From the IMG/VR virus record IMGVR_UViG_647533160_000003: DNA of 64,000 nt. One strand, written 5' to 3'. The DNA comes from a virus (Duplodnaviria; Heunggongvirae; Uroviricota; Caudoviricetes). Made by a program: the position numbers and the translations under genes. Position 1 is the first letter of the stretch. The number at the start of each line of letters is the position of its first letter. The notes beneath the pieces are model-generated. The model was not told the origin of the DNA. It was given only the letters and a program-made list of their open reading frames with translations, and did not search any database. Shown here piece by piece: positions 4,571 to 39,138 of this stretch.

Positions 4571-4612
4571 CTATCGACTGCCCCGGTCGGGGCAGTCTTA
4601 CAAGGATGTGAG

Positions 4613-4948
4613 ATGGAAAGACAAACGTTTAATTGGTATCCAGATTACGAATCTGAAAAAAGCGTAAAACCGAATGTAACGGTACTTAATTTTGGTGATG
4701 ACTACGAGCAGCGACAGGCTCAAGGTCTTAATCGTATTAAAGAAGAATGGTCGTTAACCTTTACCAGATCATACAACGAAATTAATGCAATCGATGACTT
4801 CCTGACTGAGCGATCAGGCGTTGAATCGTTCTATTGGGTTAATCCAAGAGGCAAGCAGATTGTAGTTGTATGTGACAGTCATACGGTCAAGCGATATCAG
4901 GGGTACTGTGTCTTAACAGCTACATTCAGACAAGTATTTGAGGCTTAA
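4613..4948 (+). CDS. minor tail protein, lambda gpM-like (111 aa)
   Basis: Size and position after tape measure; FGDDYEQR motif recalls lambda M (FGDGYSQR). Confidence 0.6.
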   Translation: MERQTFNWYPDYESEKSVKPNVTVLNFGDDYEQRQAQGLNRIKEEWSLTFTRSYNEINAIDDFLTERSGVESFYWVNPRGKQIVVVCDSHTVKRYQGYCVLTATFRQVFEA

Positions 4949-5030
4949 GTATCTGGATAAGTAAGTACTAATTTACTATCATTGTGGCGCTGACAGGATG
5001 TTAGCGCCTACTTATTTCAAGGATGAAACA

Positions 5031-5729
5031 ATGGGAATTAAAGCTGATATTCAGAGCTTATCTCCCTCTGCACTCATTGAGTTGTTCGTACTGGATATGT
5101 CGAACACAACTTCAGGGGGGAAGCTATTCTTCCACGCCGGAACAAACGAACTGATGCAACCGGTCGTCTGGCAAGGAGTGACATACGAGCCGTGGCCAAT
5201 CAAAGCATCAGGCTTTGACAAAACTGGCCAGGGAACGTTGCCACGTCCAAAAATTCAGGTATCGAACTTTGCCGGAACCGTCTCTGCGGAAGTTCAAGCG
5301 AACGACGATCTTGTTGGCTGCCGCATTATTCGCAAGATGACGCTGGCTCGCTTCCTCGATGCCGTTAATTTTAAAGACGGCAACCCAACAGCAGATCCAA
5401 ACCAACATTTCCCGGATGAAATGTGGTTTATCGAACAGAAAACTCTCGAAACTCATCAGGTTGTCGAGTTTGAATTGTCCAGTGTGTTCGATTTGATGGG
5501 GGTGCAACTGCCGTATCGTCAGATCATTAAAAACACCTGCCCGTGGAAATACCGAGGGCCAGAATGCGGCTATACCGGTCCATATTTCGACAAAAATAAC
5601 CAGCAGACGTCTATGTCTGGTGCGGATTACTGCACAAAACGTTATGACGCCTGTAATGCGCGTCGGAATTATTTTGCCGACGGTGTGATCCATTTTGGCG
5701 GGTTTATTGGAGCTACGCGGTATGGGTAA
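5031..5729 (+). CDS. minor tail protein, lambda gpL-like (233 aa)
   Basis: VVWQGVTYEPWPIKASGF, ARFLDAVNF and CPWKYRGPECGYTGP blocks match lambda L as recalled; ATG at 5031 with AAGGA upstream preferred over the track start at 4998. Confidence 0.75.
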   Translation: MGIKADIQSLSPSALIELFVLDMSNTTSGGKLFFHAGTNELMQPVVWQGVTYEPWPIKASGFDKTGQGTLPRPKIQVSNFAGTVSAEVQANDDLVGCRIIRKMTLARFLDAVNFKDGNPTADPNQHFPDEMWFIEQKTLETHQVVEFELSSVFDLMGVQLPYRQIIKNTCPWKYRGPECGYTGPYFDKNNQQTSMSGADYCTKRYDACNARRNYFADGVIHFGGFIGATRYG

Positions 5730-6519
5730 TAAAGCAATCCCTGAGCTTGGCTCTGACGTTATGCAGCAAATCTATCTCTGCGCCATAAATCGCTACCCTA
5801 ATGAAGCGTGTGGCTTTCTGGTTAGAACTAATGGCGACAAATATCGCTTTATGGAAGCGCGGAATGTTTCGGAGAACCCGCAGAACACTTTTGTAATGCA
5901 CGTTGACGACATTATGGCGGCAGAGGATGCGGGTGATGTTATCGCAATCTGGCATTCACATACTGATGAATCAGTAGAAGCATCTGATGCCGATCGTGCA
6001 GGCTGCGAAGCGACGGAAGTTCCGTGGATGATTCTGGCTATTCGCAAGAATGTTGAGGGAGACGCCACTTTCCATTTTAGCGAGATGAATGTGATCACAC
6101 CTGATGGTTTCGAAATGCCATACCTGGGCAGACCGTATGTATTTGGCGTATTCGATTGCTGGATGTTGTGTCGGGACTATTTGAAGCGTGAGTTTAACGT
6201 CGAACTAAACCCGAACGCACATCTGCATATTCCATCGTGGTACACCGGCGATAAAGACATTCTCGACCAGAACTACCGAAATGAAGGATTGGTACGGCTT
6301 GCGCCCGGAACAGAGCCTCAACGTGGGGACATCTTCTTTATCCAATACGGGAAAATGCCTGACCACTGCGCTGTTTATATCGGCGATGGAATGATTCTTC
6401 ATCACCAGATCGACCGCCTAAGTTGTCGTGCTTATTACGGCGGAATGTATCAGAAACATACGACGCATCACTTGCGTCACAGAGACTTGCTCAAGGGAGA
6501 TGAGACGTGTCTGAGTTAG
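5722..6519 (+). CDS. tail assembly protein, lambda gpK-like (JAB/MPN plus NlpC/P60-like)
   Basis: HSHTDESVEASDADRAG (JAB/MPN-like metal site) followed by a Cys/His-containing C-terminal half; position between L and I. Start 5722 ATG chosen over in-frame TTG at 5695. Confidence 0.65.
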   Translation: MGNKAIPELGSDVMQQIYLCAINRYPNEACGFLVRTNGDKYRFMEARNVSENPQNTFVMHVDDIMAAEDAGDVIAIWHSHTDESVEASDADRAGCEATEVPWMILAIRKNVEGDATFHFSEMNVITPDGFEMPYLGRPYVFGVFDCWMLCRDYLKREFNVELNPNAHLHIPSWYTGDKDILDQNYRNEGLVRLAPGTEPQRGDIFFIQYGKMPDHCAVYIGDGMILHHQIDRLSCRAYYGGMYQKHTTHHLRHRDLLKGDETCLS

Positions 6520-7100
6520 TTCATGTGCAGCTTGGCGGCCCTATGGCCAAACATTTTGGCCGCCACTGGCATCTAAAGGTTCGTAATACAAAACAGGCTA
6601 TGGATTTAATTGAGGCCAACAAGCCTGGGTTTAAAGCATGGATGAAGCGCAATATCAAAACCTATGACAGATACCACATCCAGATCACCAATAAACAGGG
6701 CCACAAGTGGTCTGTGGACGAGAGTGAATATCAGATGATGGGGCAGTCTGAAAACATTGCCAAAATTCGCATTACCCCTGTTCCGCGAGGAAGCGGCGGA
6801 TCTGCTTTTGGGTGGTTTCAGACGGTTGTTGGAGCCACTTTATTGGTGGCATCTTTTTTTGGCTTGCCCGCTCTTGCCCCTCTCGGTTTGTCACTGATGA
6901 TGGGCGGTATAGCGCAAATCATATCTCCGCAAGCCACTAACGAAAGTGTGAGGCAGGCGGATAACTCGAACTCTTATTACTTCGATGGACCTCAAAACAC
7001 AACAAACCAGGGGAACCCTGTACAGCTTATCTATGGCGAGGAAATTTTAGTTGGCTCACAGGTCGTGAGTTCTTCTATCACCATCGACCAGCTTATGTAA
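6507..7100 (+). CDS. tail assembly protein, lambda gpI-like (197 aa)
   Basis: Position between K-like and J-like genes; hydrophobic C-terminal half; GTG start with AAGGGAGA upstream. Confidence 0.5.
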   Translation: MSELVHVQLGGPMAKHFGRHWHLKVRNTKQAMDLIEANKPGFKAWMKRNIKTYDRYHIQITNKQGHKWSVDESEYQMMGQSENIAKIRITPVPRGSGGSAFGWFQTVVGATLLVASFFGLPALAPLGLSLMMGGIAQIISPQATNESVRQADNSNSYYFDGPQNTTNQGNPVQLIYGEEILVGSQVVSSSITIDQLM

Positions 7101-7117
7101 TCAAGGATTTTTTGGAC

Positions 7118-10100
7118 ATGGAACAGTTCAAGAAGAAAAAATTACCGCTTCTTATTGCCGGTGCTGGTGGCAAGAAAAGTAAAAGCTCCAGCCGTACCCC
7201 GGTTGAAGCTGATGATACTGTCAATTCTCGTGCTATGGCAGCCATCCTCGACCTTCTTGGCGAGGGGGTTATCGGTGGCCTGGTAAATGGCGCAAAGTCG
7301 ATCTTCATCGACGATTTACCGATCTTGAATGAAGATGGCTCTTCCAACTTCAGCGGTATTACATGGGATTTTCGTGACGGCTCACAAGACCAGACGCCAA
7401 TGGCTGGTTTTGATTTTGTTGAAACGCCTAAGTCCGTAAATATTCAGCTCAAAAAAACACACGACGTTACGGTTTCAATCGATAACGATGAAGCTGATCG
7501 CGTTCGTGTCATCATGAAATTCCCCTCTTTACGTAGCGTTGATAAAAGCTCTGGCGATACAAATGGCACTACGGTGAAGTACAAATTCCAGATCGCCAAC
7601 GGAGACGCAACATTTTCTGATGTAGTGGCAGAAGGTGAGAAAAGCGTTGATATCACGCTAACGGCAAAGAAAACCGGCGTGTATTACCGTAGCTATGAGC
7701 TGAAACTGCCTAAGCCTGGTCGTGCATACAAGGTTAGGGTGATTCGTCTTACAGATGATAACAGTAGCCAGTACCTCTACAACGACACATGGGTTGATTC
7801 CATCGGTGAGATTGTAGATACACCCATGAACTACCCTAACTCTGCACTTGTTGGCTTAAAGGTCAATTCAGAGCAGTTTGGTAGCACAATGCCTTCTCGT
7901 TCGTATTTGGTACGCGGTATCAAAATTCGAGTGCCGTCAAACTACAACGAATACACCAATACTTATGTCGGCGTATGGGACGGTACTTTTAAGCTGTTGT
8001 CTTCTTCAAACCCTGCGTGGATTCTCTACGATTTGCTTACCAATACTCGGTATGGTCTTGGGCAATTTGTGTCGGAATCCATGATTGACCTCGGCCAGCT
8101 CTACCAGATTGGTCGATATTGTGACGAAGAGGTCGATGATGGCTTTGGGGGTAAAGAGAAACGCTTTGCAATCAATACGCAGATCACCAGTCGACAAGAC
8201 GCATACCGATTAATTCAGGATATTGCTGGTGCATTCCGCGGCATGGTGTTTTGGGCTGGTGGCATGGTTAACATCATGCAGGATAGCCCATCAGATCCGG
8301 TAATGATGTTTACCAACTCCAACGTCAAAGATGGACTGTTTACCTATAAAGGTTCTGCGCGTAAAGATCGCCCATCCGTTGCGCTCGTAACCTACAACAA
8401 CAAGGAGGACGGTTATAAGCAAAACATCGAGTACGTTGAAGATCAGGACGCAATGCGCCGTTATGGTGAGCGTAAAACAGAAGTCGTAGCATTTGGATGT
8501 ACAAGCCGAGGCCAGGCTCACCGAGTTGGTTTGTGGCTTTTGTATACCGCCAGAATGGAGTCGGATGTAATTACATTTACTGCCGGCTTAGACGCCTCAT
8601 TTCTGATGCCTGGTGAAACCGTTCTGATTCAGAACAAATATCGTGCAGGTAAACGTAACTCCGGTCGAATTGTGGAGTTTACCAAAAACAGCATCACTCT
8701 CGATGCGCCTGTGTCGTTAGCTAAAAGCGGCAGCTTTATTCGGATATTGAATCAGGAAGGCAAAATCGTTGAACGCGATGTTCTTGAAACTGGCGAAAAC
8801 ATAACAAAGGTTACGTTTTCAAAAGCCCTGTCGTCAGCGGAAACGCCTGTTTTGAACGGTGTCTGGACAATTACAGAACCAGATCTCGAACCTATGCGCG
8901 TTCGCATCGTTAACATCGCTCAGGGGGAAACGTCGGGTAGCTTTGACATCACCGCTGTTGAAAACAATCCGTCTAAATATGAGGCGATCGACAATGGTGC
9001 AACGCTTATCCCGCAGAATACGACGGTATTGGACCCGACTTACTCCAAGCCGTCTAATTTGCAAATCACTGAAGGGACTTACCTCTCAAGCCCGGGTAAC
9101 CTGTCAGTAAAACTGACTGCAACATGGGAAGGGAAATCTCCAGAGTATTGGATCAGTTGGCGACGTTCTGATGAAAACAATGTATCGAACTGGAAATCGG
9201 CGCGTGTAACCGAAGAGCAATACGAAATTGTTAATGTCGCGGAGAATGGACGCTACGACTTCCAACTGTATGCGGTTTCATTCAACGGTAAAAAAACAGA
9301 AATTATCAGTACCGTTTATCAGGTGCTGGGCACAATGACACCGCCGGATGCACCAACGTCATTAACGGCCGTTGGAGACTATCGTAATGTGATACTGAAT
9401 TGGGTTAATCCAGATTCGGTAGACCTTGATCACATTAATGTTTACGCATCCCAGACCAATAATCTGGATACGGCGAAACTGATCGCAGAGTCTGCAAGCA
9501 CCACCTTTACACATGCTGGTCTTGGGGATAGTGAAACGTGGTATTACTGGGTTCGAGCTTCGAACAAGCGCGGCATGTTAAGTCCTCCGAACTCAAACTT
9601 GGGTACAGAGGCGACAACTCGCGATGTACTGTCGTTCCTGGAAGGTAAGATTACATCGTCTGAGCTTGGTCAGGCTCTGCTTGAGGACCTCAACAGCAAA
9701 GCCTCTCAAGAAGCAGTTGACGAGTTAAATGAGCATATCAACCAGAGCGTCGAATCTTTGGAGGGGGCGGTAAACGACGTTAAGGAAGATATAGCTGAAT
9801 TAGATAAGCAGTTCAGCGATAACCTCGCGGATTTTGAAATAAAATTCAACGAGCGTAGCGATGCTTTGGAGAACGCACAAACCGAGCTTAAAGGTGAGGT
9901 TTCGGCAACGATCGACAAGGTCAATGAAGCGTTTGAAAAAATTGATGCTACTGATGCTGCAATTGTTGAAATCGAAAACACCGTATCTGAACACGATAAA
10001 GCTCTCGCTAATACAGTCGAGGCAATAAAGGCTGCAAGAGATGAAGCGGCGGCTCTTATTGCTAAGGAAAGCGAGGCTCGTGTTGAAGGCGATGCTGCAA

Positions 10101-11842
10101 ACGCTAAACAACTGGAAGTGTTGCAGTCAACGGTAGAGGAAAGCTCCGCTGCTGTTGAAGAAATGAAAAAGACGGTTGCAGAGGTCGATCGTGCCAGTGC
10201 AGAACTGACTACGAACATTGAGGCGTTAGCCAAAACAAATATTGACCTGGCTCTTCGTCAAGATGAAGACCAGCACAAGCAGATGGTCAATAACGCGAAG
10301 ATCGCAACAACACAGAAAACCTTTGCTGATGATATGTCTGCAATGGCCACGAAGGTTGAGGAAATTCGCGTAGAAATTGGCGAAGACATTAAGGCCAGTA
10401 TTCTGGAAGAGTCCACCGCTCGTGCCGATGGCGATGAAGCGTTGGCAAAGCGTGTCACTCAGCTGCAATCTAAGTTTGAAGGAGATATCAGCGCGGCGAT
10501 TAGTACAGAGCAGGAGGCTCGTACATCTGCCGATGAAGCTCTGACGACACAGATCACTCAGCTTGAGTCGAAAGTAAGCAACGATATCGTCGCAGCTATT
10601 AAGGAAGAGCAAGAAGCCCGAGCAACGGAAGATTCGGCTCTGGCAAGCCAGATCACCCAACTTCAGGCAAAGGTTGATGATGATATTTCTGCTGCAATAC
10701 GTAGTGAGCAGGAGGCTCGAGCAAGCGGGGACTCTGCGTTAGCCAAACAAATAAACCAGCTTCAGTCAAAGGTTGACGGTGATATATCCGCTGCCATCAC
10801 TCAGGAGCAGGAGGCCAGAGCAAGTGCTGACCAGGCGCTCTCACGAGAAATTAACAGCCTGCGAGCACAAACCGGAACTGATATTGCCGCAGCGGTTGCT
10901 GTAGAGACAAAGGCAAGGACTGATGCCGATAGTGCATTGTCCACTCAGATTTCGTCTCTTACAGCAAAAGCTAATGATCTCGAGGCATCTCTTGCCAGAG
11001 AAACAACGGCTCGTGCAGATGGCGATACCGCTTTAACAAAAGAGGTTTCAAGTTTAAAAGCACAGACTGCGAAAGATATTAGTGCGGCCGTTGCAGTGGA
11101 AACGCAGGCTCGAACTGATGCTGACTCGGCGTTGTCATCTCAGATCACCAAGCTGACCTCTCAATACAAAGAGGATATTAAAGCGGCTGTAGCAACCGAA
11201 ACGAAAACGCGTACAGAGCAAGATGCGGCATTGGCGACTCAAATCACAAAATTAGAGTCTCAAACAGCAGCCAACATTTCTGCGGCGGTCACAACTGAAA
11301 CGACAGCGAGAACGCAGGCAGATAATGCTCTAAGTGGGCGAATCGATACTCTGAAAGCAGAGGTGGATGGAAATACCGCGACAATTCAACAGCAGGCAAC
11401 AGCCATTGCTGATACCAACAAAAAAGTCTCAACCGCGTGGACGTTGAAAATGGAGACTTCAACGAGCGGAGGGCAGAAGTATGTTGCCGGTATTGCGCTT
11501 GGTATCGACACCACCGGTCTTTCTCAGTTTTTGGTGCAGGCGGACAGATTTGGTTTGGTCAACTCTGTTAACGGGAAGATCACCACGCCATTTGTTATCG
11601 AAAACAGTATCGCCTATATGAATGGTGCGTATATCAAGGATGGCACAATCACCAATGCAAAAGTAGGCGATCTGCAATCTACCAATTTTGTTAGCGGTAG
11701 ATCTGGATGGCGGTTCGGCAAAAATGGAACGCTTGAGATCAACGGTAATAGCGGCGGCAATGGGCGATTGGTTATAAATGGTCAGCGGATTGACGTTTAT
11801 GACGATAACAACGTCTTACGAGTAAGAATTGGCCTTCTGTGA
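7118..11842 (+). CDS. host specificity / central tail fibre protein, lambda gpJ-like with inserted coiled-coil repeat stalk
   Basis: Blocks YPNSALVGLKVNSEQFGS, RYCDEEVDDGFGG, AFGCTSRGQAHRVGLWL, FLEGKITSSELGQALLE and GGQKYVAGIALG match lambda J as recalled; about ten tandem ~33-aa helical repeats (approx 10440-11350) lie between the last two blocks. ATG 7118 preferred over TTG 7112. Confidence 0.8.
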   Translation: MEQFKKKKLPLLIAGAGGKKSKSSSRTPVEADDTVNSRAMAAILDLLGEGVIGGLVNGAKSIFIDDLPILNEDGSSNFSGITWDFRDGSQDQTPMAGFDFVETPKSVNIQLKKTHDVTVSIDNDEADRVRVIMKFPSLRSVDKSSGDTNGTTVKYKFQIANGDATFSDVVAEGEKSVDITLTAKKTGVYYRSYELKLPKPGRAYKVRVIRLTDDNSSQYLYNDTWVDSIGEIVDTPMNYPNSALVGLKVNSEQFGSTMPSRSYLVRGIKIRVPSNYNEYTNTYVGVWDGTFKLLSSSNPAWILYDLLTNTRYGLGQFVSESMIDLGQLYQIGRYCDEEVDDGFGGKEKRFAINTQITSRQDAYRLIQDIAGAFRGMVFWAGGMVNIMQDSPSDPVMMFTNSNVKDGLFTYKGSARKDRPSVALVTYNNKEDGYKQNIEYVEDQDAMRRYGERKTEVVAFGCTSRGQAHRVGLWLLYTARMESDVITFTAGLDASFLMPGETVLIQNKYRAGKRNSGRIVEFTKNSITLDAPVSLAKSGSFIRILNQEGKIVERDVLETGENITKVTFSKALSSAETPVLNGVWTITEPDLEPMRVRIVNIAQGETSGSFDITAVENNPSKYEAIDNGATLIPQNTTVLDPTYSKPSNLQITEGTYLSSPGNLSVKLTATWEGKSPEYWISWRRSDENNVSNWKSARVTEEQYEIVNVAENGRYDFQLYAVSFNGKKTEIISTVYQVLGTMTPPDAPTSLTAVGDYRNVILNWVNPDSVDLDHINVYASQTNNLDTAKLIAESASTTFTHAGLGDSETWYYWVRASNKRGMLSPPNSNLGTEATTRDVLSFLEGKITSSELGQALLEDLNSKASQEAVDELNEHINQSVESLEGAVNDVKEDIAELDKQFSDNLADFEIKFNERSDALENAQTELKGEVSATIDKVNEAFEKIDATDAAIVEIENTVSEHDKALANTVEAIKAARDEAAALIAKESEARVEGDAANAKQLEVLQSTVEESSAAVEEMKKTVAEVDRASAELTTNIEALAKTNIDLALRQDEDQHKQMVNNAKIATTQKTFADDMSAMATKVEEIRVEIGEDIKASILEESTARADGDEALAKRVTQLQSKFEGDISAAISTEQEARTSADEALTTQITQLESKVSNDIVAAIKEEQEARATEDSALASQITQLQAKVDDDISAAIRSEQEARASGDSALAKQINQLQSKVDGDISAAITQEQEARASADQALSREINSLRAQTGTDIAAAVAVETKARTDADSALSTQISSLTAKANDLEASLARETTARADGDTALTKEVSSLKAQTAKDISAAVAVETQARTDADSALSSQITKLTSQYKEDIKAAVATETKTRTEQDAALATQITKLESQTAANISAAVTTETTARTQADNALSGRIDTLKAEVDGNTATIQQQATAIADTNKKVSTAWTLKMETSTSGGQKYVAGIALGIDTTGLSQFLVQADRFGLVNSVNGKITTPFVIENSIAYMNGAYIKDGTITNAKVGDLQSTNFVSGRSGWRFGKNGTLEINGNSGGNGRLVINGQRIDVYDDNNVLRVRIGLL

Positions 11843-11935
11843 TGGTAGAAAAAAATATTTATATCGGTAAAAATAAGTAGGTACTTACTTAATGGTGGGC
11901 AAGGATAGCCCACCAAATCAAGGAGCATATTCAAC

Positions 11936-14900
11936 ATGTGGTACAGGGAAGGTACTATCACATTTACACAGGGTAGTAATACTCTGGTTGGGGTTGGGAC
12001 AGCCTGGAACGTAACAGCTAATGGTGTGTTGCCGGGGATGATCGTCATTGGCCCCGACAATAAGCTGTATGAGATCAAGCGCGTAACAAGCGATACGAAC
12101 ATTGTTCTCTCAGAACCTTATACCGGTGAAACTCAGTCTGAAGTTCCGTGCCGAATCATTACTACCTATGAAGGCGACTTAACACAGTTTAGCGCGCGCT
12201 TTACCGCGCTAATGTCGCGTATGTCGGCTGATTCCAAGTCCATGCGTAGTTGGTTGACTGCTCTGGATGAGGTGACAATCGAGCGTGAAGACGGTACAGA
12301 AGTGACCGTTAAGCCGCTGATGCAGATCGTCAACGAGCACAACGAAAACGTTGAGTGGTATAAAAATAACACTGACGCGATTGATGCCGCTGGTGACAAA
12401 GCTCGTGAGGCGGCGGCCAGTGCTGCCGCAGCAGCAGAAAGCGCCAATACCGCTGGAGAAAAAGCATCTCAAGCGTCTCAAAGTGCATCCGCTGCGGCAT
12501 CCTCACAAAGTGCCGCAAGTGCGAGTGCAACTGCTGCGAAAAAATCTGAAACGAACGCAGAATCAGCATATCTAGCGGCAGCAGAATCAGCGTCTGTAGC
12601 GTCGACCAAAGCATCGGAGGCAGCAACATCTGCGTCCAGTGCCTCTGCATCTAAGGATGCAGCCAAAGCATCAGAGACTAACGCTTCATCGAGTGCAAAC
12701 GCGGCTGCATCATTTGCAACAGAAGCTGAAAATTCGTCTAAGGCAGCAAAAGCGTCAGAGACAAACGCAAAAGCATCTGAAACGGCAGCCGGGCAGAGTG
12801 CATCGTCTGCAAACAGTTCGAAATCTGCGGCAGAAGCGTCAGCAAGCGCAGCCTCAGCAAGTGCGGATAGAGCTTCATCAAGTGCAACTGCGGCAGGAAA
12901 ATCTGCGGAAAGCGCGTCGTCGTCAGCGACAACAGCTACCGCAAAAGCGACTGAGGCGACGAATCAGGCTACAGCCGCTAAAAATTCAGCATCGGCAGCA
13001 AAATCCTCTGAAACAAATGCAAAGGCTTCTGAAGATAATGCCGCTTCCTCTAAAGAGGCAGCTGCTGAATCTGCAAGTTCTGCGTCTGCATCAGCCACCT
13101 CGGCATCCGCTTCAAAAGATGAGGCGACCAAGCAGGCATCAGCTGCGAAGGGGAGTGCTTCAACGGCATCCACGAAAGCAACAGAGGCGGCAGGCAGTGC
13201 GACGGCTGCATCTCAGAGCAAAGCTGCTGCTGAATCCGCTGCGACCCGTGCAGAAGCTGCCGCTGATCGTGCTGAAGAGATTGCCGGTGCCGTTGCGATG
13301 GAAGACGCAAGCCTTACCACCAAAGGTGTTGTGAAACTTAGCAGTGCTGTCGACAGCACCAGTGAATCGCTGGCCGCAACGCCAAAAGCAGTTAAAGCAG
13401 CCAATGACAATGCGAATAGCAGGGTGCCATCTAACCGAAAAGTTAACGGTAAAGCACTGACTGCGGATATCACATTAACGCCGAAAGATATTGGTACTTT
13501 AAATTCAGTAACGATGTCTTTCTCTGGCGGGGCTGGGTGGTTCAAACTGGCTACGGTTACCATGCCACAAGCGAGTTCCATCGTTTACATCGCATTGATT
13601 GGTGGCGCTGGTTACAACGTCGGCTCCCCACATCAGGCAGGCATTTCAGAACTGGTTCTACGAGCAGGCAATGGAAACCCCAAAGGGATTACCGGTGCTT
13701 TGTGGAAGCGGACAGCCGTCGGATTAACGAATTTCGCCTGGATCAACACATCCGGCGATACATATGATATTTACGTTGAGATTGGCAATTATGCGACTAG
13801 TGTAAATATCCATTGGGATTGTACTGCAAATGCGACAGTTTCTATTTATACATCGCCAACATATTCAGCGAGTAAGCCTTCCAGCGTTACCGATGGTGTT
13901 GTTTATACGATGTATAGCACACATCAGAAACCGACGCCGTTAGATATTGGAGCACTGCCAACAACCGGAGGAACAGTTTCAGGTCCGTTGTCTGTTACTG
14001 GTGGGATCACCGGAACATTAAATGGTAATGCAAGTACAGCAACGAAATTGCAGACGGCAAGATCTATCGGTGGAGTTGGTTTCGACGGTTCTGCAAATAT
14101 CAACCTTCCAGGTGTAAATACTACGGGTAATCAGAACACCACTGGTAATGCTGCAACTGCTACAAAACTTCAGACGGCAAGAACTATCGGCGGCGTGAGC
14201 TTTGATGGTACTGCGAATATTAATTTGCCAGGTGTTAATACGACTGGTAATCAGAATACAACGGGCAACGCGGCTACTGCTACGAAGTTGCAGACTGCAC
14301 GTACTATCAATGGGGTGTCGTTTGACGGCTCGGCAAATATTTCCTTGTCGCCAGCAAATATAGGTTGCCCGGCATCTCCTACTGGTTGGTTAACTACAGG
14401 AAGTAATGGCGGAGCAATAACAACAGCACAGTTAGTGACGTTATTGCAAAATAATGGAGCATTTAACACAAAGTCATGGATTGCTCGATGTGCGTGGGCC
14501 TATGCCAATAGTGCAACCATACCAAACAGTGAAACTGGTTGTGGCGTTATTCCATTGGCAGGAGCTGTTATAGAGGTATTTAATAACGGTAGTAGCTCAA
14601 ACAATTATACGATCCGTATAACAACGGCCACAACGACGAGTGTCTCTGGTGCTCTCACTAATGCGGAGTTTATCTATGTATTTAATGGCACAGATTATTC
14701 TCCGGGATGGCGAAGAGTATATAACACGAAAAACAAACCAACAGCCTCTGATGTCGGTGCATTACCTCTTACCGGTGGTACATTATCTGGAGGTTTGACA
14801 TCTTCTGGCGAGATCATTTCAAAATATGCAAATGGTTTCCGCATTGCTTACGGTAGCTTTGGGTTCTTTATCCGTAATGATGGATCGAACACATATTTCA

Positions 14901-32873: not shown

Positions 32874-32948
32874 GATGGTGTAGCTCAGCGGTAGAGCAGT
32901 TGGCTGTTAACCAACTGGTCGGTGGTTCGAATCCACCCACCATCGCCA
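32874..32948 (+). tRNA. tRNA-Asn (anticodon GTT)
   Basis: Cloverleaf by hand: acceptor GATGGTG/CACCATC, D-arm GCTCAGCGGTAGAGC, anticodon stem GTTGG/CCAAC with loop CTGTTAA, T-arm GGTGG-TTCGAAT-CCACC, encoded 3' GCCA. Confidence 0.8.
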
Positions 32949-32953
32949 ATTTA

Positions 32954-33040
32954 GGGGAGTTAGTCCGTAGAGGTAGCGGGACAGACTGTAAATCTACTGT
33001 CATTGCGACTCGGGTGGTTCGACTCCATCACTCCCCACCA
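32954..33040 (+). tRNA. tRNA-Tyr-like (anticodon GTA), long variable arm, imperfect anticodon stem
   Basis: Acceptor GGGGAGT/ACTCCCC, loop CTGTAAA, long variable arm, T-loop TTCGACT, encoded CCA; anticodon stem has two non-Watson-Crick positions, so it may be atypical or a pseudo-tRNA. Confidence 0.55.
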
Positions 33041-33044
33041 AATT

Positions 33045-33120
33045 GCCGGTTTAGCTCAGTTGGTAGAGCGCCTGCCTTGTAAGCAGGATGTCAGCGGTTC
33101 GAGTCCGTTAACCGGCACCA
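33045..33120 (+). tRNA. tRNA-Thr (anticodon TGT)
   Basis: Acceptor GCCGGTT/AACCGGC, D-arm TAGCTCAGTTGGTAGAGC, anticodon stem CCTGC/GCAGG with loop CTTGTAA, T-arm AGCGG-TTCGAGT-CCGTT, encoded CCA. Confidence 0.8.
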
Positions 33121-33344
33121 ATACAACGATAAGATCATTACGGTTAATCGTCGTTCATGTGCACAATGACTGGTCGAAAGGTAGTGATCTTACCGTTGTG
33201 GTGGATTCGCAGACTGATGCGATAGCTTTCTTGGATGTTAGGGAAATGCGGCCGCAAATCTTCCCTTTCGCGAGCGGTGATCGTCCGTAGTCCTAATTGG
33301 CTGCACCGTATGCCGGAGATTCAGTACCGGCCACCACAACGGCC

Positions 33345-33431
33345 GGAGAGTAGGGAGCATGGTGCTCAAGCGGTCTTGAAAATCGTCCCATTGTGCAAAC
33401 GATGATGGTTCGATTCCATTACTCTCCGCCA
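33345..33431 (+). tRNA. tRNA-Ser (anticodon TGA), class II with long variable arm
   Basis: Perfect 7-bp acceptor GGAGAGT/ACTCTCC, anticodon stem GCGGT/ATCGT with loop CTTGAAA, long variable arm, T-arm GATGG-TTCGATT-CCATT, encoded GCCA. Confidence 0.75.
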
Positions 33432-33609: not shown

Positions 33610-34821
33610 TCAAAAAAGTTTTATAAATTCATAATTCTGGTCAATTAAGGATTCAATACACACCATGCAAAAATCTACATCGTTAAAATCAGGTGTGTAA
33701 TATTCATCCTCATAACATTCATTTAGACCTTCAATCAATTTTTCTTTAAAAACTCCCCACGTTTCAATATGAACCATTTCCATATAAGGCGCATGTGTAT
33801 GTACTTGCAATACATCCCAGGTGTCTATAACCTCGATCCGCGGCTTGCAATTAATTTTTTCTAAATATGCCCTCCCAGAATTGTAAATTTTCGACATTGA
33901 TGCCCCAAAACCTGATGGTTGGTAATGAGTGTAAATGTCATAAATTTTTTGTCCTATTCTAGGGAGTTGAGAAGCATTGGATATTTGTGGCGAATGAAAG
34001 TATCGCTCTATGGAAGAAAACGCAGAAACATTAACTAGAGTAATCGTATATGGTGCTAAAGTTCTCTCGTTCAAATTTCTACATAAAATAGCAAACCCAT
34101 GGCTATTAGTCTTTTCACCGTCTGAGGACATTTTTGCCATGCTGGCTTTAATAACATTCAATTTCGAATGTAAACGAGAAGTGGAAGTCGGTTGATTATA
34201 CATTTCATCATCATACAAACATATATGAAACCCGCCAAGATGACGAAATGAGAACTTGAGTGCTTCTTCCGCAATAACTAATTTATTAATATCTAAAGGA
34301 GTAAGTGATACGTTACCTTGTAAATCATAGCAAGGTTCTAAACATAGAAAGTTTTTCTTCTGCCACACGATCATATTAAAAATAAAGTGTCTAACCAAAG
34401 GTGGCCAGTCAGGTGATATAAGTACATTGGTAATATCTCCATCAGACAAGTATGACAAGTAACTTTTTAGTTCCGCAGCATATGCCACTAGCTCAGTTCC
34501 AGCTTCCCTTGTTGGTGTTGAAAAATTTTTTAACTCAATAAGAACTAAGGATTCATTCTCTGTTGAATAAGCAACGACATCAGGTCTTAATATCTCAGAT
34601 TTTGTTGCTGAGATATTCTCATCATCTGTCATTAAATGTAACAATGTTATGTTCTTTAAACAAAACTGATAACTCTCCTTAATTTTTTTCTCTTCGGGTC
34701 TTTTCGGATTAAATTCATTTAATTTATCAATATTGATGATTGAATTATATAATCCATCTTGATCAGATAATTTGTCAATTATCCAATTTTGCATTTCCTT
34801 TTCGCTTAAAAATATTGACAC
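33610..34821 (-). CDS. hypothetical protein with N-terminal PD-(D/E)xK-like nuclease motif (403 aa); second gene of AT-rich accessory operon
   Basis: Motif RPDVVAYSTENESLVLIELK (aa ~79-99) fits a restriction-endonuclease-like core; hand-counted sample lines are about one-third G+C versus about one-half in neighbouring core genes; 26-nt gap to upstream gene on same strand. Confidence 0.55.
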   Translation of the reverse strand: MSIFLSEKEMQNWIIDKLSDQDGLYNSIINIDKLNEFNPKRPEEKKIKESYQFCLKNITLLHLMTDDENISATKSEILRPDVVAYSTENESLVLIELKNFSTPTREAGTELVAYAAELKSYLSYLSDGDITNVLISPDWPPLVRHFIFNMIVWQKKNFLCLEPCYDLQGNVSLTPLDINKLVIAEEALKFSFRHLGGFHICLYDDEMYNQPTSTSRLHSKLNVIKASMAKMSSDGEKTNSHGFAILCRNLNERTLAPYTITLVNVSAFSSIERYFHSPQISNASQLPRIGQKIYDIYTHYQPSGFGASMSKIYNSGRAYLEKINCKPRIEVIDTWDVLQVHTHAPYMEMVHIETWGVFKEKLIEGLNECYEDEYYTPDFNDVDFCMVCIESLIDQNYEFIKLF

Positions 34822-34847: not shown

Positions 34848-35669
34848 TTAAAAATCTTGCTTTACTTTATCCATGGTCAGAATTTTGCTAATAATTGAAG
34901 ATTCAAATCCATCTAAACCTGAGAGAAAGTTAATTAGCTTTTGGATATGTTGTTCTTTAGGTATAAGTATATATTTTATATCATTGAACTCAAAATCAAT
35001 GCCAAACTTTGAAAATTTTGAGCTAATTTTTGCTTTGTCATCAGAAGTGATAACACGCTCCAAACTCAGACTAGGCCATAAATCACCAATAAAAGGAGCT
35101 GGCACATAACGCCACTCTTTCTCGTCTGCATATATATAATTCTCTATTGTTTTATTATCTTTTCGCTCTAGCTTGCCTCTGTAATTTTTCATATAACGCA
35201 GTAAATTATATAGATCAGAATATTCTGCTTTCAATTTCTCAAACTCTATTCTGTTTTTGGTATCTAAATTTCCTCTAGCCTTCCAAAGCGGCACCAACTT
35301 ATTTTTAATAAGTCGAATTCTGGCATTGTATTTAGAAAATATTTCACTACTCTTATTCATATATAGAACTGGGTGTAGACCTTTCTTTTCCGCCCAAGAC
35401 TTAGTTAGCCCAAGACCGAATTCTCCATATTTTCCGCTATGATCTCTGATTTGTGATAGTTTTATGTCACAAAACGATACCATTGGTACTGCAAACCTCC
35501 TGCGTCCCCCGACTCCTCTTATTTCCTCGCGAGCAAGAAATGGTTTAAAATATTTCTCAGCCAATATGCTATAGAAAGCATCTTCGTTTTTTGTAAAATG
35601 AAACAACGTGGTTGGATGAAGACTATAAACAGATTCAACATTCGCATCAGGATTTTCAAGGATAGTCAT
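34848..35669 (-). CDS. hypothetical protein (approx 273 aa); first gene of AT-rich accessory operon
   Basis: AT-rich ORF co-oriented with the nuclease-motif gene; probable start at Met16 of the track ORF (MTILENPD); no motif recognised. Confidence 0.5.
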   Translation of the reverse strand: MTILENPDANVESVYSLHPTTLFHFTKNEDAFYSILAEKYFKPFLAREEIRGVGGRRRFAVPMVSFCDIKLSQIRDHSGKYGEFGLGLTKSWAEKKGLHPVLYMNKSSEIFSKYNARIRLIKNKLVPLWKARGNLDTKNRIEFEKLKAEYSDLYNLLRYMKNYRGKLERKDNKTIENYIYADEKEWRYVPAPFIGDLWPSLSLERVITSDDKAKISSKFSKFGIDFEFNDIKYILIPKEQHIQKLINFLSGLDGFESSIISKILTMDKVKQDF

Positions 35670-35958
35670 TTTACACCTTGTGGAAAGCCAGTTTAGTTCT
35701 GTAAATAGTATCACACGACAGGCGGCTATTCTTCTATCAATAAATGATAGGTAAGCACTTACTTTTTACGCACGTTAACTGTATAGTTCTTTCGGATACT
35801 CACTTGAAAGGACTCAATATGGGAAATAAATGTAAACATGCGCGTCGCGCATCTCGTCAGGTGCAGAAGTCAAATCCATACATTCACGAGCACTACCACC
35901 TCAGCTCTTTCACTAACCGCTACACGTTCCCCAGCGAAGCGCATAACGAGGCAAAGCA

Positions 35959-36204
35959 ATGACGATCACTATCTATGGACGAGATAACTGCTCATACTGC
36001 AAACGTGCGGTCGAGCTGGCGAAGCAGCTTCACGGTCACGGTTTTGGCGATTACGAATACATCGATATTGTGTCTGCTGGGATAGACAAAGAGAAATTGA
36101 GCGCCCTGGTTGGCAAGCCGGTGGAGACCATACCGCAGGTGTTCGTAAATGGCGAATCTATCGGTGGCTATACGGAATTCGCCGCTCTGGTGAGTACATT
36201 ATAA
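35959..36204 (+). CDS. glutaredoxin-like protein (NrdH/Grx-like, 81 aa)
   Basis: CxxC active site (CSYCKRA) near N-terminus and GGY motif near C-terminus; thioredoxin-fold size; G+C like core phage genes. Confidence 0.75.
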   Translation: MTITIYGRDNCSYCKRAVELAKQLHGHGFGDYEYIDIVSAGIDKEKLSALVGKPVETIPQVFVNGESIGGYTEFAALVSTL

Positions 36205-36209
36205 TTAAG

Positions 36210-36229
36210 AGCCGCTTAGGCGGCTTTTT
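36210..36229. terminator. rho-independent terminator
   Basis: AGCCGCTTAGGCGGCTTTTT after the glutaredoxin-like gene. Confidence 0.65.
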
Positions 36230-36371
36230 ACATGAAAGTGTGCGCTCAAATCAACTATATCTATGAAAAGGACAGTTATAAATATTAAAAATATCTAAAA
36301 TCCCTTCCGATATATGAATTATCAGATTAAAATTTCACACAATGTGCTTTTAATGAGTTATTATTTCACCT

Positions 36372-36996
36372 NNNNNNNNNNNNNNNNNNNNNNNNNNNNN
36401 NNNNNNNNNNNNNNNNNNNNNNNNNNNNNNNNNNNNNNNNNNNNNNNNNNNNNNNNNNNNNNNNNNNNNNNNNNNNNNNNNNNNNNNNNNNNNNNNNNNN
36501 NNNNNNNNNNNNNNNNNNNNNNNNNNNNNNNNNNNNNNNNNNNNNNNNNNNNNNNNNNNNNNNNNNNNNNNNNNNNNNNNNNNNNNNNNNNNNNNNNNNN
36601 NNNNNNNNNNNNNNNNNNNNNNNNNNNNNNNNNNNNNNNNNNNNNNNNNNNNNNNNNNNNNNNNNNNNNNNNNNNNNNNNNNNNNNNNNNNNNNNNNNNN
36701 NNNNNNNNNNNNNNNNNNNNNNNNNNNNNNNNNNNNNNNNNNNNNNNNNNNNNNNNNNNNNNNNNNNNNNNNNNNNNNNNNNNNNNNNNNNNNNNNNNNN
36801 NNNNNNNNNNNNNNNNNNNNNNNNNNNNNNNNNNNNNNNNNNNNNNNNNNNNNNNNNNNNNNNNNNNNNNNNNNNNNNNNNNNNNNNNNNNNNNNNNNNN
36901 NNNNNNNNNNNNNNNNNNNNNNNNNNNNNNNNNNNNNNNNNNNNNNNNNNNNNNNNNNNNNNNNNNNNNNNNNNNNNNNNNNNNNNNNNNNNNNNN
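36372..36996. other. run of 625 N (assembly gap or masked sequence)
   Basis: Uninterrupted n characters; ORFs translated as X across it are artefacts. Confidence 0.99.
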
Positions 36997-37760
36997 GAAA
37001 TGTTTCTACCACGGTGATAATCCATTCCATAAACCGAATCAATTCCTGAGTTCACTATCTTCATCTGAATTTCAAAAAAATCATTATTTAAATCAAAGTA
37101 AACAATAGGGACCTCATATCTTCTGCTAGAAAAATCCATTGGTGATAGATAGTTAAGACCATTTGCACTGACCTTCACTTGAATTCCAGCCTGTATACCT
37201 GAATTCGACGTTGGAGCAGAAATAAGTAATTGAGAAAGTGGGTCTCGTTTGTCTATCCACACAATGTCCCGTTGAGTATCATTAGGTTGATATTTAGTAG
37301 GATAGTTAATTTTCGTATAGTTGAGTCCAGTCCCAACAGCTTTATAATTAGACAAACTATCTGTGAAAGGGGTATATCTCTTTGCTAATAATGCCCAGTT
37401 TTCATTTTGTTTCGCGTTTTTTTCACATTCTTCAACAATGAGTGCTTCCGCAATTTTACCTAATATTCTCATAGTTGTTTTATGGGGATCTAGTTCGATA
37501 ATGATGTTTGACTTGATCACTCCTTCTTCATTAATACCAACAAGACCTAACTCTTTATCCATGAGTTCAAATAAATTTTCCCCATGCTCAATTGCTAACA
37601 AAGCTGAAGGTCGTGATAATAATGAAGAGTTATTCCAATCTCCGAGGGAGATATCCAGACCTAAATCAATACCTTTAGTCGTCACTACTAGCTGAGGTTT
37701 GGGAGGCGTAGCCCCTAATAACTCAGATAGCGTGTTGACTTCCGGTGTCTCTTTTATCAT
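36997..37760 (-). CDS. hypothetical protein, 5' portion only (3' end lost in N run)
   Basis: AT-rich minus-strand ORF starting MIKETPEV at 37760 and running into the N run after at least 254 codons; no motif recognised. Confidence 0.45.
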
Positions 37761-38034
37761 TTTTCTTATCCTGTTGCAGCGATCGCATGACAATACTATA
37801 AAACCAGCCATTTTCAAGTAAATCAATTACCTTTTAGGTGATGAAGATAAAAGTGAAGCCAACCCCTCCGTTCGAAAAGATAGATTCAAAAAAATCGCCC
37901 CCCAATGATTCCATACCTACTATGTATGGAATCATTACTGAAAATGAGTTACTTTTACTCTTGATCCTATAAGAATCTATGCCTAATATACTGTTTACTT
38001 ATACAGTGCATCGGCGTAACTCGGTGATTGTCAT

Positions 38035-39138
38035 ATGAAAAATAGCTTTGACAGAGCACGCGCTGCGGAGAACACCTCAAAAGAGGCGATTGAGTATCTC
38101 GAAAGAGCATCTCAAATGCAGGCCGTTATGATCTCCCAGGTCAGCAATGACATGAGATTCTCGGACGCATTCATGTTATTCACTCGCTTATCTCTGCTGA
38201 TAACAAGACGTCGGCCAGAGATCGCTGTTCATTGTATTTTGATACATGTTTTGCCGCACATTGCCGATGTAAAAGTAAGTGATATTAATAGGTTCATGGT
38301 GAACCAACTGGTCAACCCACTAATACTGGATGGCAAAATTGTTATGGGTCGCCGCGTTTTCTCTCTGATGAAGCAGTTCCTCAGCTGGTGCGCCTTCCAG
38401 GGGATGATCGACGTGTCACCGTTAAACGATATGTCACTTAACAAAGTTGCCGGTGGCGCAAAGCCCACACCTCGCGAGCGGAAGCTGACCGACGCAGAGG
38501 TATGGGTGTTCTGGAATATATGGGACTACTTCAATGTGTGTGCTGGTACAAAATGGGCGGCCAGGCTATGTCTTGTATCCGCAAGACGACCTGACGAAGT
38601 ACTGCGGGCTAAAAAAAGTGAGTTCAATCTTAAGCGTGGGGTTTGGAATCAAGGCAAGAGGAACAAATCTGCCCGTGAGCATTCTCTGCCTTTAAGCTCA
38701 TTAATGCGCACATGTATTGAAGAGTTGTTCGAATATGGTAAAGACAGCCAGTGGCTCGTGCCTTCGAATAAAAAAATCGGGAAAGACCTTCCTATGTCTA
38801 AAGTGGCAATAGCCCAGGCATTACGTCGTATTCTGGAACGACCAGAACTGATGGAGCTTGAGCCATTTACACCCCGAGATTTGCGCCGTACTGCGCGTAG
38901 TTACTTCCCAGCATTAGGCATAAGCCAGGAGGTATCACGTAAAATCATGAACCACAGTCTTGAGGGGATAGATCGGGTCTACGACCGGCACGATTATATG
39001 GACGAGATGCGAGACGCCTTAGAAAGTTTCTCGACGTACATCGCATCAATCGTAGAGCAACCGGATTTAGACGAAATTGACCACAAATTTAAGGGAGATC
39101 GTCTATCAACAGAGCTTATTCGTGTAAATTTTTCATAG
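38035..39138 (+). CDS. int: tyrosine recombinase / integrase (P4-like family)
   Basis: C-terminal catalytic blocks: R in VSARRPDEV, FTPRDLRRTARS (box II-like), NHSLEGIDRVYDRHDY containing the likely Tyr nucleophile. Confidence 0.75.
   Translation: MKNSFDRARAAENTSKEAIEYLERASQMQAVMISQVSNDMRFSDAFMLFTRLSLLITRRRPEIAVHCILIHVLPHIADVKVSDINRFMVNQLVNPLILDGKIVMGRRVFSLMKQFLSWCAFQGMIDVSPLNDMSLNKVAGGAKPTPRERKLTDAEVWVFWNIWDYFNVCAGTKWAARLCLVSARRPDEVLRAKKSEFNLKRGVWNQGKRNKSAREHSLPLSSLMRTCIEELFEYGKDSQWLVPSNKKIGKDLPMSKVAIAQALRRILERPELMELEPFTPRDLRRTARSYFPALGISQEVSRKIMNHSLEGIDRVYDRHDYMDEMRDALESFSTYIASIVEQPDLDEIDHKFKGDRLSTELIRVNFS

Follow-up and report, generated by a model that had tools for sequence, protein, structure and literature searches.

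A rare 307-codon cargo gene of SSU5-like phage-plasmids, interrupted by a probable assembly gap, as a candidate solitary nuclease gene

The stretch of DNA analysed here, hereafter the window, comprises 64,000 nucleotides (nt) of the virus record IMGVR_UViG_647533160_000003 (Caudoviricetes). On its minus strand, in the slot between a plus-strand glutaredoxin gene and a plus-strand integrase gene, lies an AT-rich cargo gene whose 3′ part disappears into a run of Ns, and it is this gene, together with the gap that interrupts it, that is considered in the following. By megablast, the region belongs to the SSU5-like phage-plasmids of Escherichia coli, as exemplified by Escherichia phage Cyrano and by plasmids of about 111–115 kilobases (kb). 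The slot, its borders and its contents are made up as follows, with coordinates given in the window and L003 being a relative in which the gene is free of the gap.

35959–36204, plus strand: grxA-type glutaredoxin gene of the backbone, left border of the slot (Pfam Glutaredoxin, E = 6.7e-11, and RefSeq annotation).
36205–36371, minus strand: AT-rich, non-coding DNA next to the 3′ end of the cargo gene, on the left of the gap (sequence; exact match to L003 4649–4815).
36210–36225: GC-rich hairpin where grxA and the cargo gene converge, resembling a terminator when read on the minus strand (L003 4669–4654).
36372–36996, no strand: run of Ns, most likely an assembly or scaffolding gap (in relatives, the two flanks are 185 nt apart).
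36997–37760, minus strand: visible part of the cargo gene, codons 1–254 plus 2 nt of a coding sequence of 307 codons (translation and identity to L003).
37417–37423, minus strand: A7 homopolymer within the gene, codons 113–115 (public frameshift variants).
37761–37883, minus strand: cargo-specific 5′ region with the AGGA and promoter matches (promoter scan and homology boundary).
38035–39138, plus strand: tyrosine recombinase (integrase) gene of the backbone, right border of the slot (Pfam Phage_integrase, E = 2.9e-10, and annotation).

An ATG at 37760–37758, with an AGGA 8 nt upstream of it (37769–37772), opens a frame that continues for 254 codons plus 2 nt up to the gap edge at 36997. The gene has a GC content of 36%, against 45.4% for the window. 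Its visible part is matched at 100% in seven complete RefSeq plasmids and is identical to L003:4841–5764 across the shared part, and the product in the relatives is WP_052322692.1, a protein of 307 amino acids (aa) annotated as "hypothetical protein". An initial annotation, made from the sequence of the window, had described an AT-rich minus-strand gene that starts at 37760 and reads at least 254 codons into the N run, has its 3′ end out of sight, and is separated by the glutaredoxin gene from an operon of two genes; translation and gene order bear out each of these points, the 3′ end being cut off by the gap at 36997. The span that it gave, 36366–37826, corresponds to a 486-aa open reading frame (ORF) read mechanically through the Ns from an upstream in-frame TTG, and its lower end at 36366 is meaningless because a frame cannot be carried across a gap whose real length is uncertain. 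Overlapping sigma-70-like promoter matches are found at 37790–37822 (L003 5826–5794 and 5821–5794); as evidence for a promoter they are weak, because the scan returned 8 sites where 5.3 are expected in shuffled sequences. In our main explanation, the gene is a complete, single cargo gene of 307 codons with its own promoter-like site, residing in the grxA–integrase slot.

The only N run of the window measures exactly 625 nt, and the relatives indicate what may stand in its place. Exactly 185 nt separate the window's two gap flanks in all 11 relatives without a gap, namely the seven complete RefSeq E. coli plasmids, three IMG/VR contigs and one whole-genome shotgun contig, SKEL01000069. Within these 185 nt, 157 nt complete codons 255–307, and after them come the stop codon and 25 non-coding nt. 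Filler and flanks form a single uninterrupted match in all seven RefSeq plasmids, and exact matching of the flanks places them 185 nt apart in L003, in L004, in two IMG/VR contigs, in SKEL01000069 and in the third, more divergent IMG/VR contig. When the 5.5-kb region around the gap is used as query, it aligns as two pieces in six of the seven plasmids, with a span 440 nt below that of the query. The IMG/VR contig L013 agrees with the window at every one of 6975 flanking nt (3438 + 3537). Most likely, as judged from these alignments, the N run is an ordinary assembly gap whose stated length of 625 nt is wrong and which hides just the 185 nt. The most economical reading would be that a reproducible trough in short-read coverage, situated in an AT-rich stretch, was spanned during scaffolding on the basis of a badly estimated distance. 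Public assemblies show where such breaks fall: the exact 307-aa sequence is present on 356 public contigs, and many of the 53 members of the 90% identity cluster of WP_052322692.1 are 'partial' proteins of 212–283 aa from contigs that terminate in the 3′ third of the gene. Such recurrent draft contig ends point to a recurrent short-read assembly break. Two causes that might have produced the gap were considered and rejected: a repeat, as filler and flanks are single-copy in every genome carrying them, and a hairpin, as the region, when folded as DNA, falls below shuffled controls in stability (z = +1.6).

It could also be that the gap hides a true structural difference, in the form of an insertion or replacement of about 0.4–0.8 kb (for example of a repeated element or a fragment of an insertion sequence) at the 3′ end of the gene, in which case the protein would be truncated near residue 255. 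The N run is indeed longer than the 185 nt of the relatives, and two contigs from independent E. coli drafts (L062 and L063, from GCA_025323985.1 and GCA_052296375.1) terminate within 1 nt of 36996/36997, one of them being 99.97% and the other, from GCA_052296375.1, just 98.8% identical to the window; a shared end point of this kind is the pattern that the junction of a multi-copy element gives in short-read assemblies. On the other hand, none of the 11 gap-free relatives has an insertion, and a simple insertion is unlikely because it leaves the flanks adjacent, whereas in the intact copies they are 185 nt apart. The other partial entries end at scattered points (212 to 283 aa), as would suit a trough in coverage, and no contig with a different continuation at the gap was found with exact flank patterns in genome, viral and metagenome collections, where the searches returned gap-free 185-nt versions only, or no match. 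Because of the 440-nt excess and the identical break point, a real insertion or replacement at this place therefore keeps a small though appreciable share of the probability.

A further possibility, which was the one put forward in the initial annotation, is that the gap conceals another gene or a part of a multi-gene system that works together with the visible gene. A small ORF of about 130–140 aa could be fitted into the 440 surplus nt, and several distant homologues carry an unrelated ORF of 130–150 aa just downstream. These downstream ORFs, however, are not homologous to one another, and the close relatives all have only the 25 non-coding nt after the stop codon, so that the 185 nt of all 11 hold no other gene. 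In a survey of the two nearest ORFs on each side at 35 species-representative loci, giving 132 neighbours, no Pfam family recurs either, none being encountered more than three times. A concealed gene or system component is thus very hard to credit, and that the gap should not be taken as concealing part of a defence island is the main correction to the first reading. The same annotation would have been content to drop its suspicion in the event of a short non-coding filler and a protein with an ordinary phage function; the filler of the relatives is short, but the protein has no recognisable ordinary phage function and belongs to an uncharacterised family.

The whole window aligns to plasmid pEc2-51408 (NZ_CP104116) at 96–99% identity, and the annotation of this plasmid lists tail genes, cor, a DnaB-like helicase, primase, ligase, a four-tRNA cluster and an AbiGi-like operon, followed by grxA, the cargo gene, the integrase, a helix-turn-helix repressor, CobT/CobS-like proteins, DnaE, SSB, RecA and RepB. 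Of 5,426 complete E. coli genomes, 7 contain the phage-plasmid lineage. Homology with the relatives stops at the grxA stop codon and restarts at about 37884 on the integrase side, and comparison of the window with L002, L019, L020 and L021 reveals four states of the intervening slot (36205–37883) across related phage-plasmids, with the integrase-side junction at about 37884 in all four:

Empty slot, in NZ_CP061757 and AnCo2.
YafO-type toxin gene with an upstream unknown gene.
Gene for an unrelated 184-aa protein, phrog_28788, in phage Cyrano.
Cargo gene for WP_052322692.1.

The AbiGi-like operon beyond grxA is likewise variably present in relatives, and a type I restriction-modification (RM) system occupies a different slot of the same plasmid backbone. 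Defence systems such as PrrC, PD-T4-3, PD-T7-5 and RM have been reported from E. coli and Shigella phage-plasmids of the SSU5 group (bioRxiv 10.1101/2025.09.12.675607). Since the contents of the slot vary and RM and defence genes occur elsewhere on the backbone, we regard the position as a cargo site of an element that accumulates defence genes. Not all copies of the cargo gene are intact: a 1-nt frameshift in the A7 run splits it into ORFs of 124 aa and 172 aa (P0237 and L064–L067; nine contigs read), which could reflect decay or, alternatively, on/off switching through slippage at the homopolymer.

The cargo protein goes unrecognised by the sequence libraries. Neither the visible 254-aa fragment nor the full 307-aa protein has a match in Pfam, NCBIfam, PHROGs or PADLOC, in the last case even when E values up to 1 are admitted, and 56 aligned homologues gave no match in Pfam. 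Searching the PDB by sequence and by profile returned noise only, Foldseek comparison of a structural model with the PDB and BFVD gave no match with an E value below 1, and no mention of accession WP_052322692.1 was found in the papers searched. A word-indexed search of 5.8 billion proteins nevertheless retrieved 101 homologues of about 300 aa, all of them without a Pfam domain and with uninformative names, from E. coli, Salmonella, Erwinia, Pseudomonas, Acinetobacter, Actinobacillus, Klebsiella, Clostridium, Lachnospiraceae, Anabaena and a deltaproteobacterium; when 1.84 billion cluster representatives were searched by profile, 238 clusters were obtained at E ≤ 1e-3. Relatives are encoded in 39 of 185,579 species-representative genomes and on 23 of 2.9 million IMG/VR contigs, so the family is rare yet very widely scattered, as expected for cargo that moves horizontally. 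One protein, P0277 (Lachnospiraceae, in the cluster of P0039), is named '3-deoxy-7-phosphoheptulonate synthase' in the GenBank record of a metagenome-assembled genome; the searches lend this name no support and it looks like an annotation error.

Conservation within the family is confined to certain positions. In the alignment of 56 members, which has a mean column identity of 31%, residues G60, L63, G101, E105, C112, A141, T144, G145, Q163, D165, G192, Q194, K196, S198, Y215, P218 and Y221 are invariant, and D161, E216 and D223 are nearly so. No position beyond residue 227 is conserved, and since the 53 residues hidden by the gap therefore hold no invariant one, searches with the visible part answer in the same way as searches with the full protein. 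The AlphaFold model is confident (predicted local distance difference test, pLDDT, 87.9; predicted template modelling score, pTM, 0.84). In it, a helix (92–114) is followed by three strands (139–143, 166–170 and 192–198), a helical stretch (helices 201–211) and a further strand (219–223). The core of the PD-(D/E)xK superfamily has the order helix, three strands, helix, strand, with the catalytic residues distributed over three of these elements. The model matches that order along the chain, which is a statement about succession and not about the arrangement of the sheet in three dimensions. Of the residues that make up the motif, E105, D165 and K196 are invariant, Q194 is a variant of it and E216 is nearly invariant; in the model, E105 is placed on helix 92–114, D165 just before strand 166–170, and Q194-x-K196 on strand 192–198.

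From the fit to this pattern, as far as the model can be relied upon, the product is probably a nuclease, a view that we favour without pressing it far. It would be a stand-alone, Mg2+-dependent enzyme of the PD-(D/E)xK (restriction-endonuclease-like) type, with a small N-terminal alpha/beta domain at residues ~31–90 and a C-terminal helical region at ~228–307. The catalytic core would extend over ~92–225; the first helix would supply E105 to it, the second strand would open with D165 and the third would contribute Q194-x-K196, with E216 as a possible further residue. Domain fusions in other members point in the same direction. P0108 is fused to an N-terminal C5 DNA-methylase-like domain (Pfam E = 5.5e-36), in which, by eye, the Pro-Cys catalytic motif seems to be missing, GPPCQ being apparently replaced (…DILTASLIRRHSS…), so that this domain may serve for binding instead of catalysis. 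The longer members P0044 and P0131 have Cys-rich, zinc-ribbon-like N-termini, and one member carries MORN repeats. It might be objected that the protein is not a nuclease at all, that its alpha/beta core has some other catalytic or binding role and that the resemblance to the motif is a coincidence. As the invariant E, D and QxK sit exactly on the three elements that are catalytic in PD-(D/E)xK enzymes, and as the fusion partners are DNA-related, we consider this rather unlikely.

Among solved members of the superfamily, the nearest examples are the restriction enzymes BsaWI (4zsf), AgeI (5dwa), NgoMIV (1fiu) and Cfr10I (1cfr). WP_052322692.1 differs in having a Gln before the Lys in place of the usual Asp or Glu and in its extra N- and C-terminal domains, and a cognate methylase was found beside the gene in none of the 35 loci. 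In a Type II RM system one would look for an adjacent methyltransferase; there is none in the grxA–integrase slot or among the recurrent neighbour families, and the one exception in the family with regard to methylases is the fused methylase-like domain of P0108. The protein could still be an orphan Type II-like restriction endonuclease, akin to the CCGG/CCWGG group, against which the host would be shielded by a methylase encoded elsewhere, for instance its own Dcm. That no DNA methylase is enriched among the 132 neighbours at 35 loci from very different phyla, and that even the fused methylase-like domain apparently lacks the catalytic Pro-Cys motif when inspected by eye, makes an orphan of this kind highly improbable.

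The genomic surroundings of the homologues add to this picture of a gene that stands by itself. DNA methylases were not among the recurrent families in the neighbour survey, and an all-against-all BLAST of the neighbours disclosed no shared partner beyond close lineages. As no neighbour is conserved over these 35 loci from other taxa, no partner is to be expected for the gene in the window. In the pooled list of strong PADLOC matches among the neighbours, which is not a count of distinct loci, are BnzB, LmuB/C, GajB, PD-T7-3, a type IIG RM enzyme, AbiEi, a type I S subunit, PDC-S35 and MADS. A Salmonella/Erwinia homologue is located at the edge of an integrase island adjoining mutS, a Pseudomonas citronellolis homologue lies among genes for SIR2_2, an SLFN-type helicase, MazG-like and SocA_Panacea proteins, and Acinetobacter homologues are carried on small Rep3 plasmids. 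The gene is solitary and is often found among defence genes, which is an association and not a proof.

Several known systems can be compared with such a gene. The resemblance to Type IV restriction enzymes such as Mrr and McrA lies in a single nuclease-like gene without a methylase, located on mobile elements and often in defence islands. The solitary gene without a methylase is what we find, but WP_052322692.1 matches no catalytic or modified-base reader domain of such enzymes in Pfam or PADLOC. With the single-gene cargo of E. coli prophage and satellite hotspots (the PD-T4, PD-T7 and PD-Lambda series; PADLOC-DB 2.0), taken as a comparison set, it has in common that a lone AT-rich gene occupies a variable position among the conserved backbone genes of a temperate element, with other defence cargo nearby; it differs from them in having no match to any PADLOC model. 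A type II toxin–antitoxin system, as the YafO cargo in the same slot might bring to mind, would have a small adjacent partner, and in the 25 nt after the stop codon and the surroundings of the gene no annotated or conserved partner is seen.

A nuclease gene need not serve defence, and it might instead be a free-standing homing-type or selfish nuclease that propagates the gene encoding it from one mobile element to related ones. The gene is solitary, its composition is foreign to the backbone, and the occupied and empty grxA–integrase slots show a presence/absence polymorphism between conserved backbone genes, as is expected of a free-standing homing endonuclease; homologues occur in Clostridium and Agathobacter phages and on the 23 IMG/VR contigs, in one case beside HNH endonuclease genes. 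However, the same slot also accommodates unrelated cargo, the YafO pair, and is therefore a general cargo site and not the homing site of the nuclease-like gene. Moreover, many homologues are on chromosomal islands or small Rep3 plasmids and not in phages, and defence genes are often their neighbours. We regard homing as improbable.

A solitary defence nuclease is what we prefer. The enzyme would act alone in defence or superinfection exclusion by cutting incoming foreign DNA, with expression starting from its own promoter-like site at 37790–37822. The cue that marks the target may be a DNA modification or structure that is absent from the host, as in a solitary Type IV-like restriction enzyme; or else the nuclease may be an effector that is kept inactive and becomes activated during infection. 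Taken as a whole, the explanation that an assembly gap interrupts a 307-codon cargo gene for a presumed solitary defence nuclease stands, in our estimation, about midway between belief and disbelief, and several observations weigh against it. With respect to the gap, the N run exceeds the filler of the relatives by 440 nt, and independent assemblies whose contigs stop at one and the same nucleotide would be just as compatible with a genuine junction to a repeated element. As for the protein, it is recognised by no sequence library and has no Foldseek match in the PDB or BFVD, it has Gln (Q194) in the third-strand motif where most PD-(D/E)xK members have Asp or Glu, and the clustering of the proposed catalytic residues is presumed from their order along the chain and not from model coordinates. 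The support for a role in defence consists of genomic association, and some lineages hold the gene in a form inactivated by frameshift.

Beyond grxA, the same cargo region holds a second set of genes:

33610–34821 and 34848–35714, minus strand: two-gene operon, its second gene AbiGi-like.

The 288-aa protein of this operon strongly matches AbiGi (PADLOC E = 5.3e-47). Its 403-aa partner has no match to any AbiGii model; it matches phrog_30092, of unknown function, and shows a sub-threshold hit to HSDR_N_2, a restriction-enzyme N-terminal domain (E = 0.008). The operon may thus represent an AbiGi protein paired with a non-canonical partner. As an AbiG (AbiGi/AbiGii) pair it resembles the nuclease-like gene in location and in similarly low GC content, but it forms a separate transcription unit past the oppositely oriented grxA and occurs in relatives without the nuclease-like gene. 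WP_052322692.1 itself has no match to AbiGi or AbiGii models in PADLOC and Pfam, and it does not belong to AbiG by this measure.

Just upstream of the AbiGi-like operon, four tRNA genes are present at 32874–33431 (Asn-GTT, Tyr-GTA, Thr-TGT and Ser-TGA), of which phage Cyrano is annotated with three only, Tyr being absent. On the other side of the slot, the integrase gene is preceded, at a distance of about 100 nt, by an almost perfect palindrome at 37904–37936 (AATGATTCCATACCTA / TATGTATGGAATCATT), whose arms of 16 nt are 94% complementary and have a single nt between them; it is kept in SSU5-like relatives, those with an empty slot included, and could be an operator or a recombination site. 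Relative to pEc2-51408, the most divergent part of the window is the tail-tip and tail-fibre region at 2168–14660, with 96% identity over 2168–14183 and no alignment for 14184–14659, which lies within a tail-fibre ORF of 1385 aa, and this divergence suggests exchange of a host-range module.

For practical purposes, the sequence missing from the window can be filled in from public relatives, and the assembly break at the 3′ end serves as a warning when the gene is counted in draft genomes. For the biology of the element, the finding is that a phage-plasmid lineage carries a well-conserved and confidently folded protein that no annotation resource names. More tentatively, and with clearly more doubt than confidence, one may see in WP_052322692.1 and its roughly 240 clusters an undescribed family of single-gene anti-phage nucleases. 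Such a family would possess a divergent core (E...D...QxK...E) in a fold arrangement without a close solved relative. Its genes would be exchangeable cargo in the grxA–integrase slot of SSU5-like elements and in defence islands of at least eight phyla. The importance of this is modest, in that a specialist would not be surprised and what is gained is a cheap candidate for phage challenge. Should the protein prove to be an anti-phage nuclease, it would be a small and easily tested candidate with clear catalytic-site mutants, and the cargo carried by phage-plasmids between Enterobacteriaceae would be enlarged by a further single-gene system.

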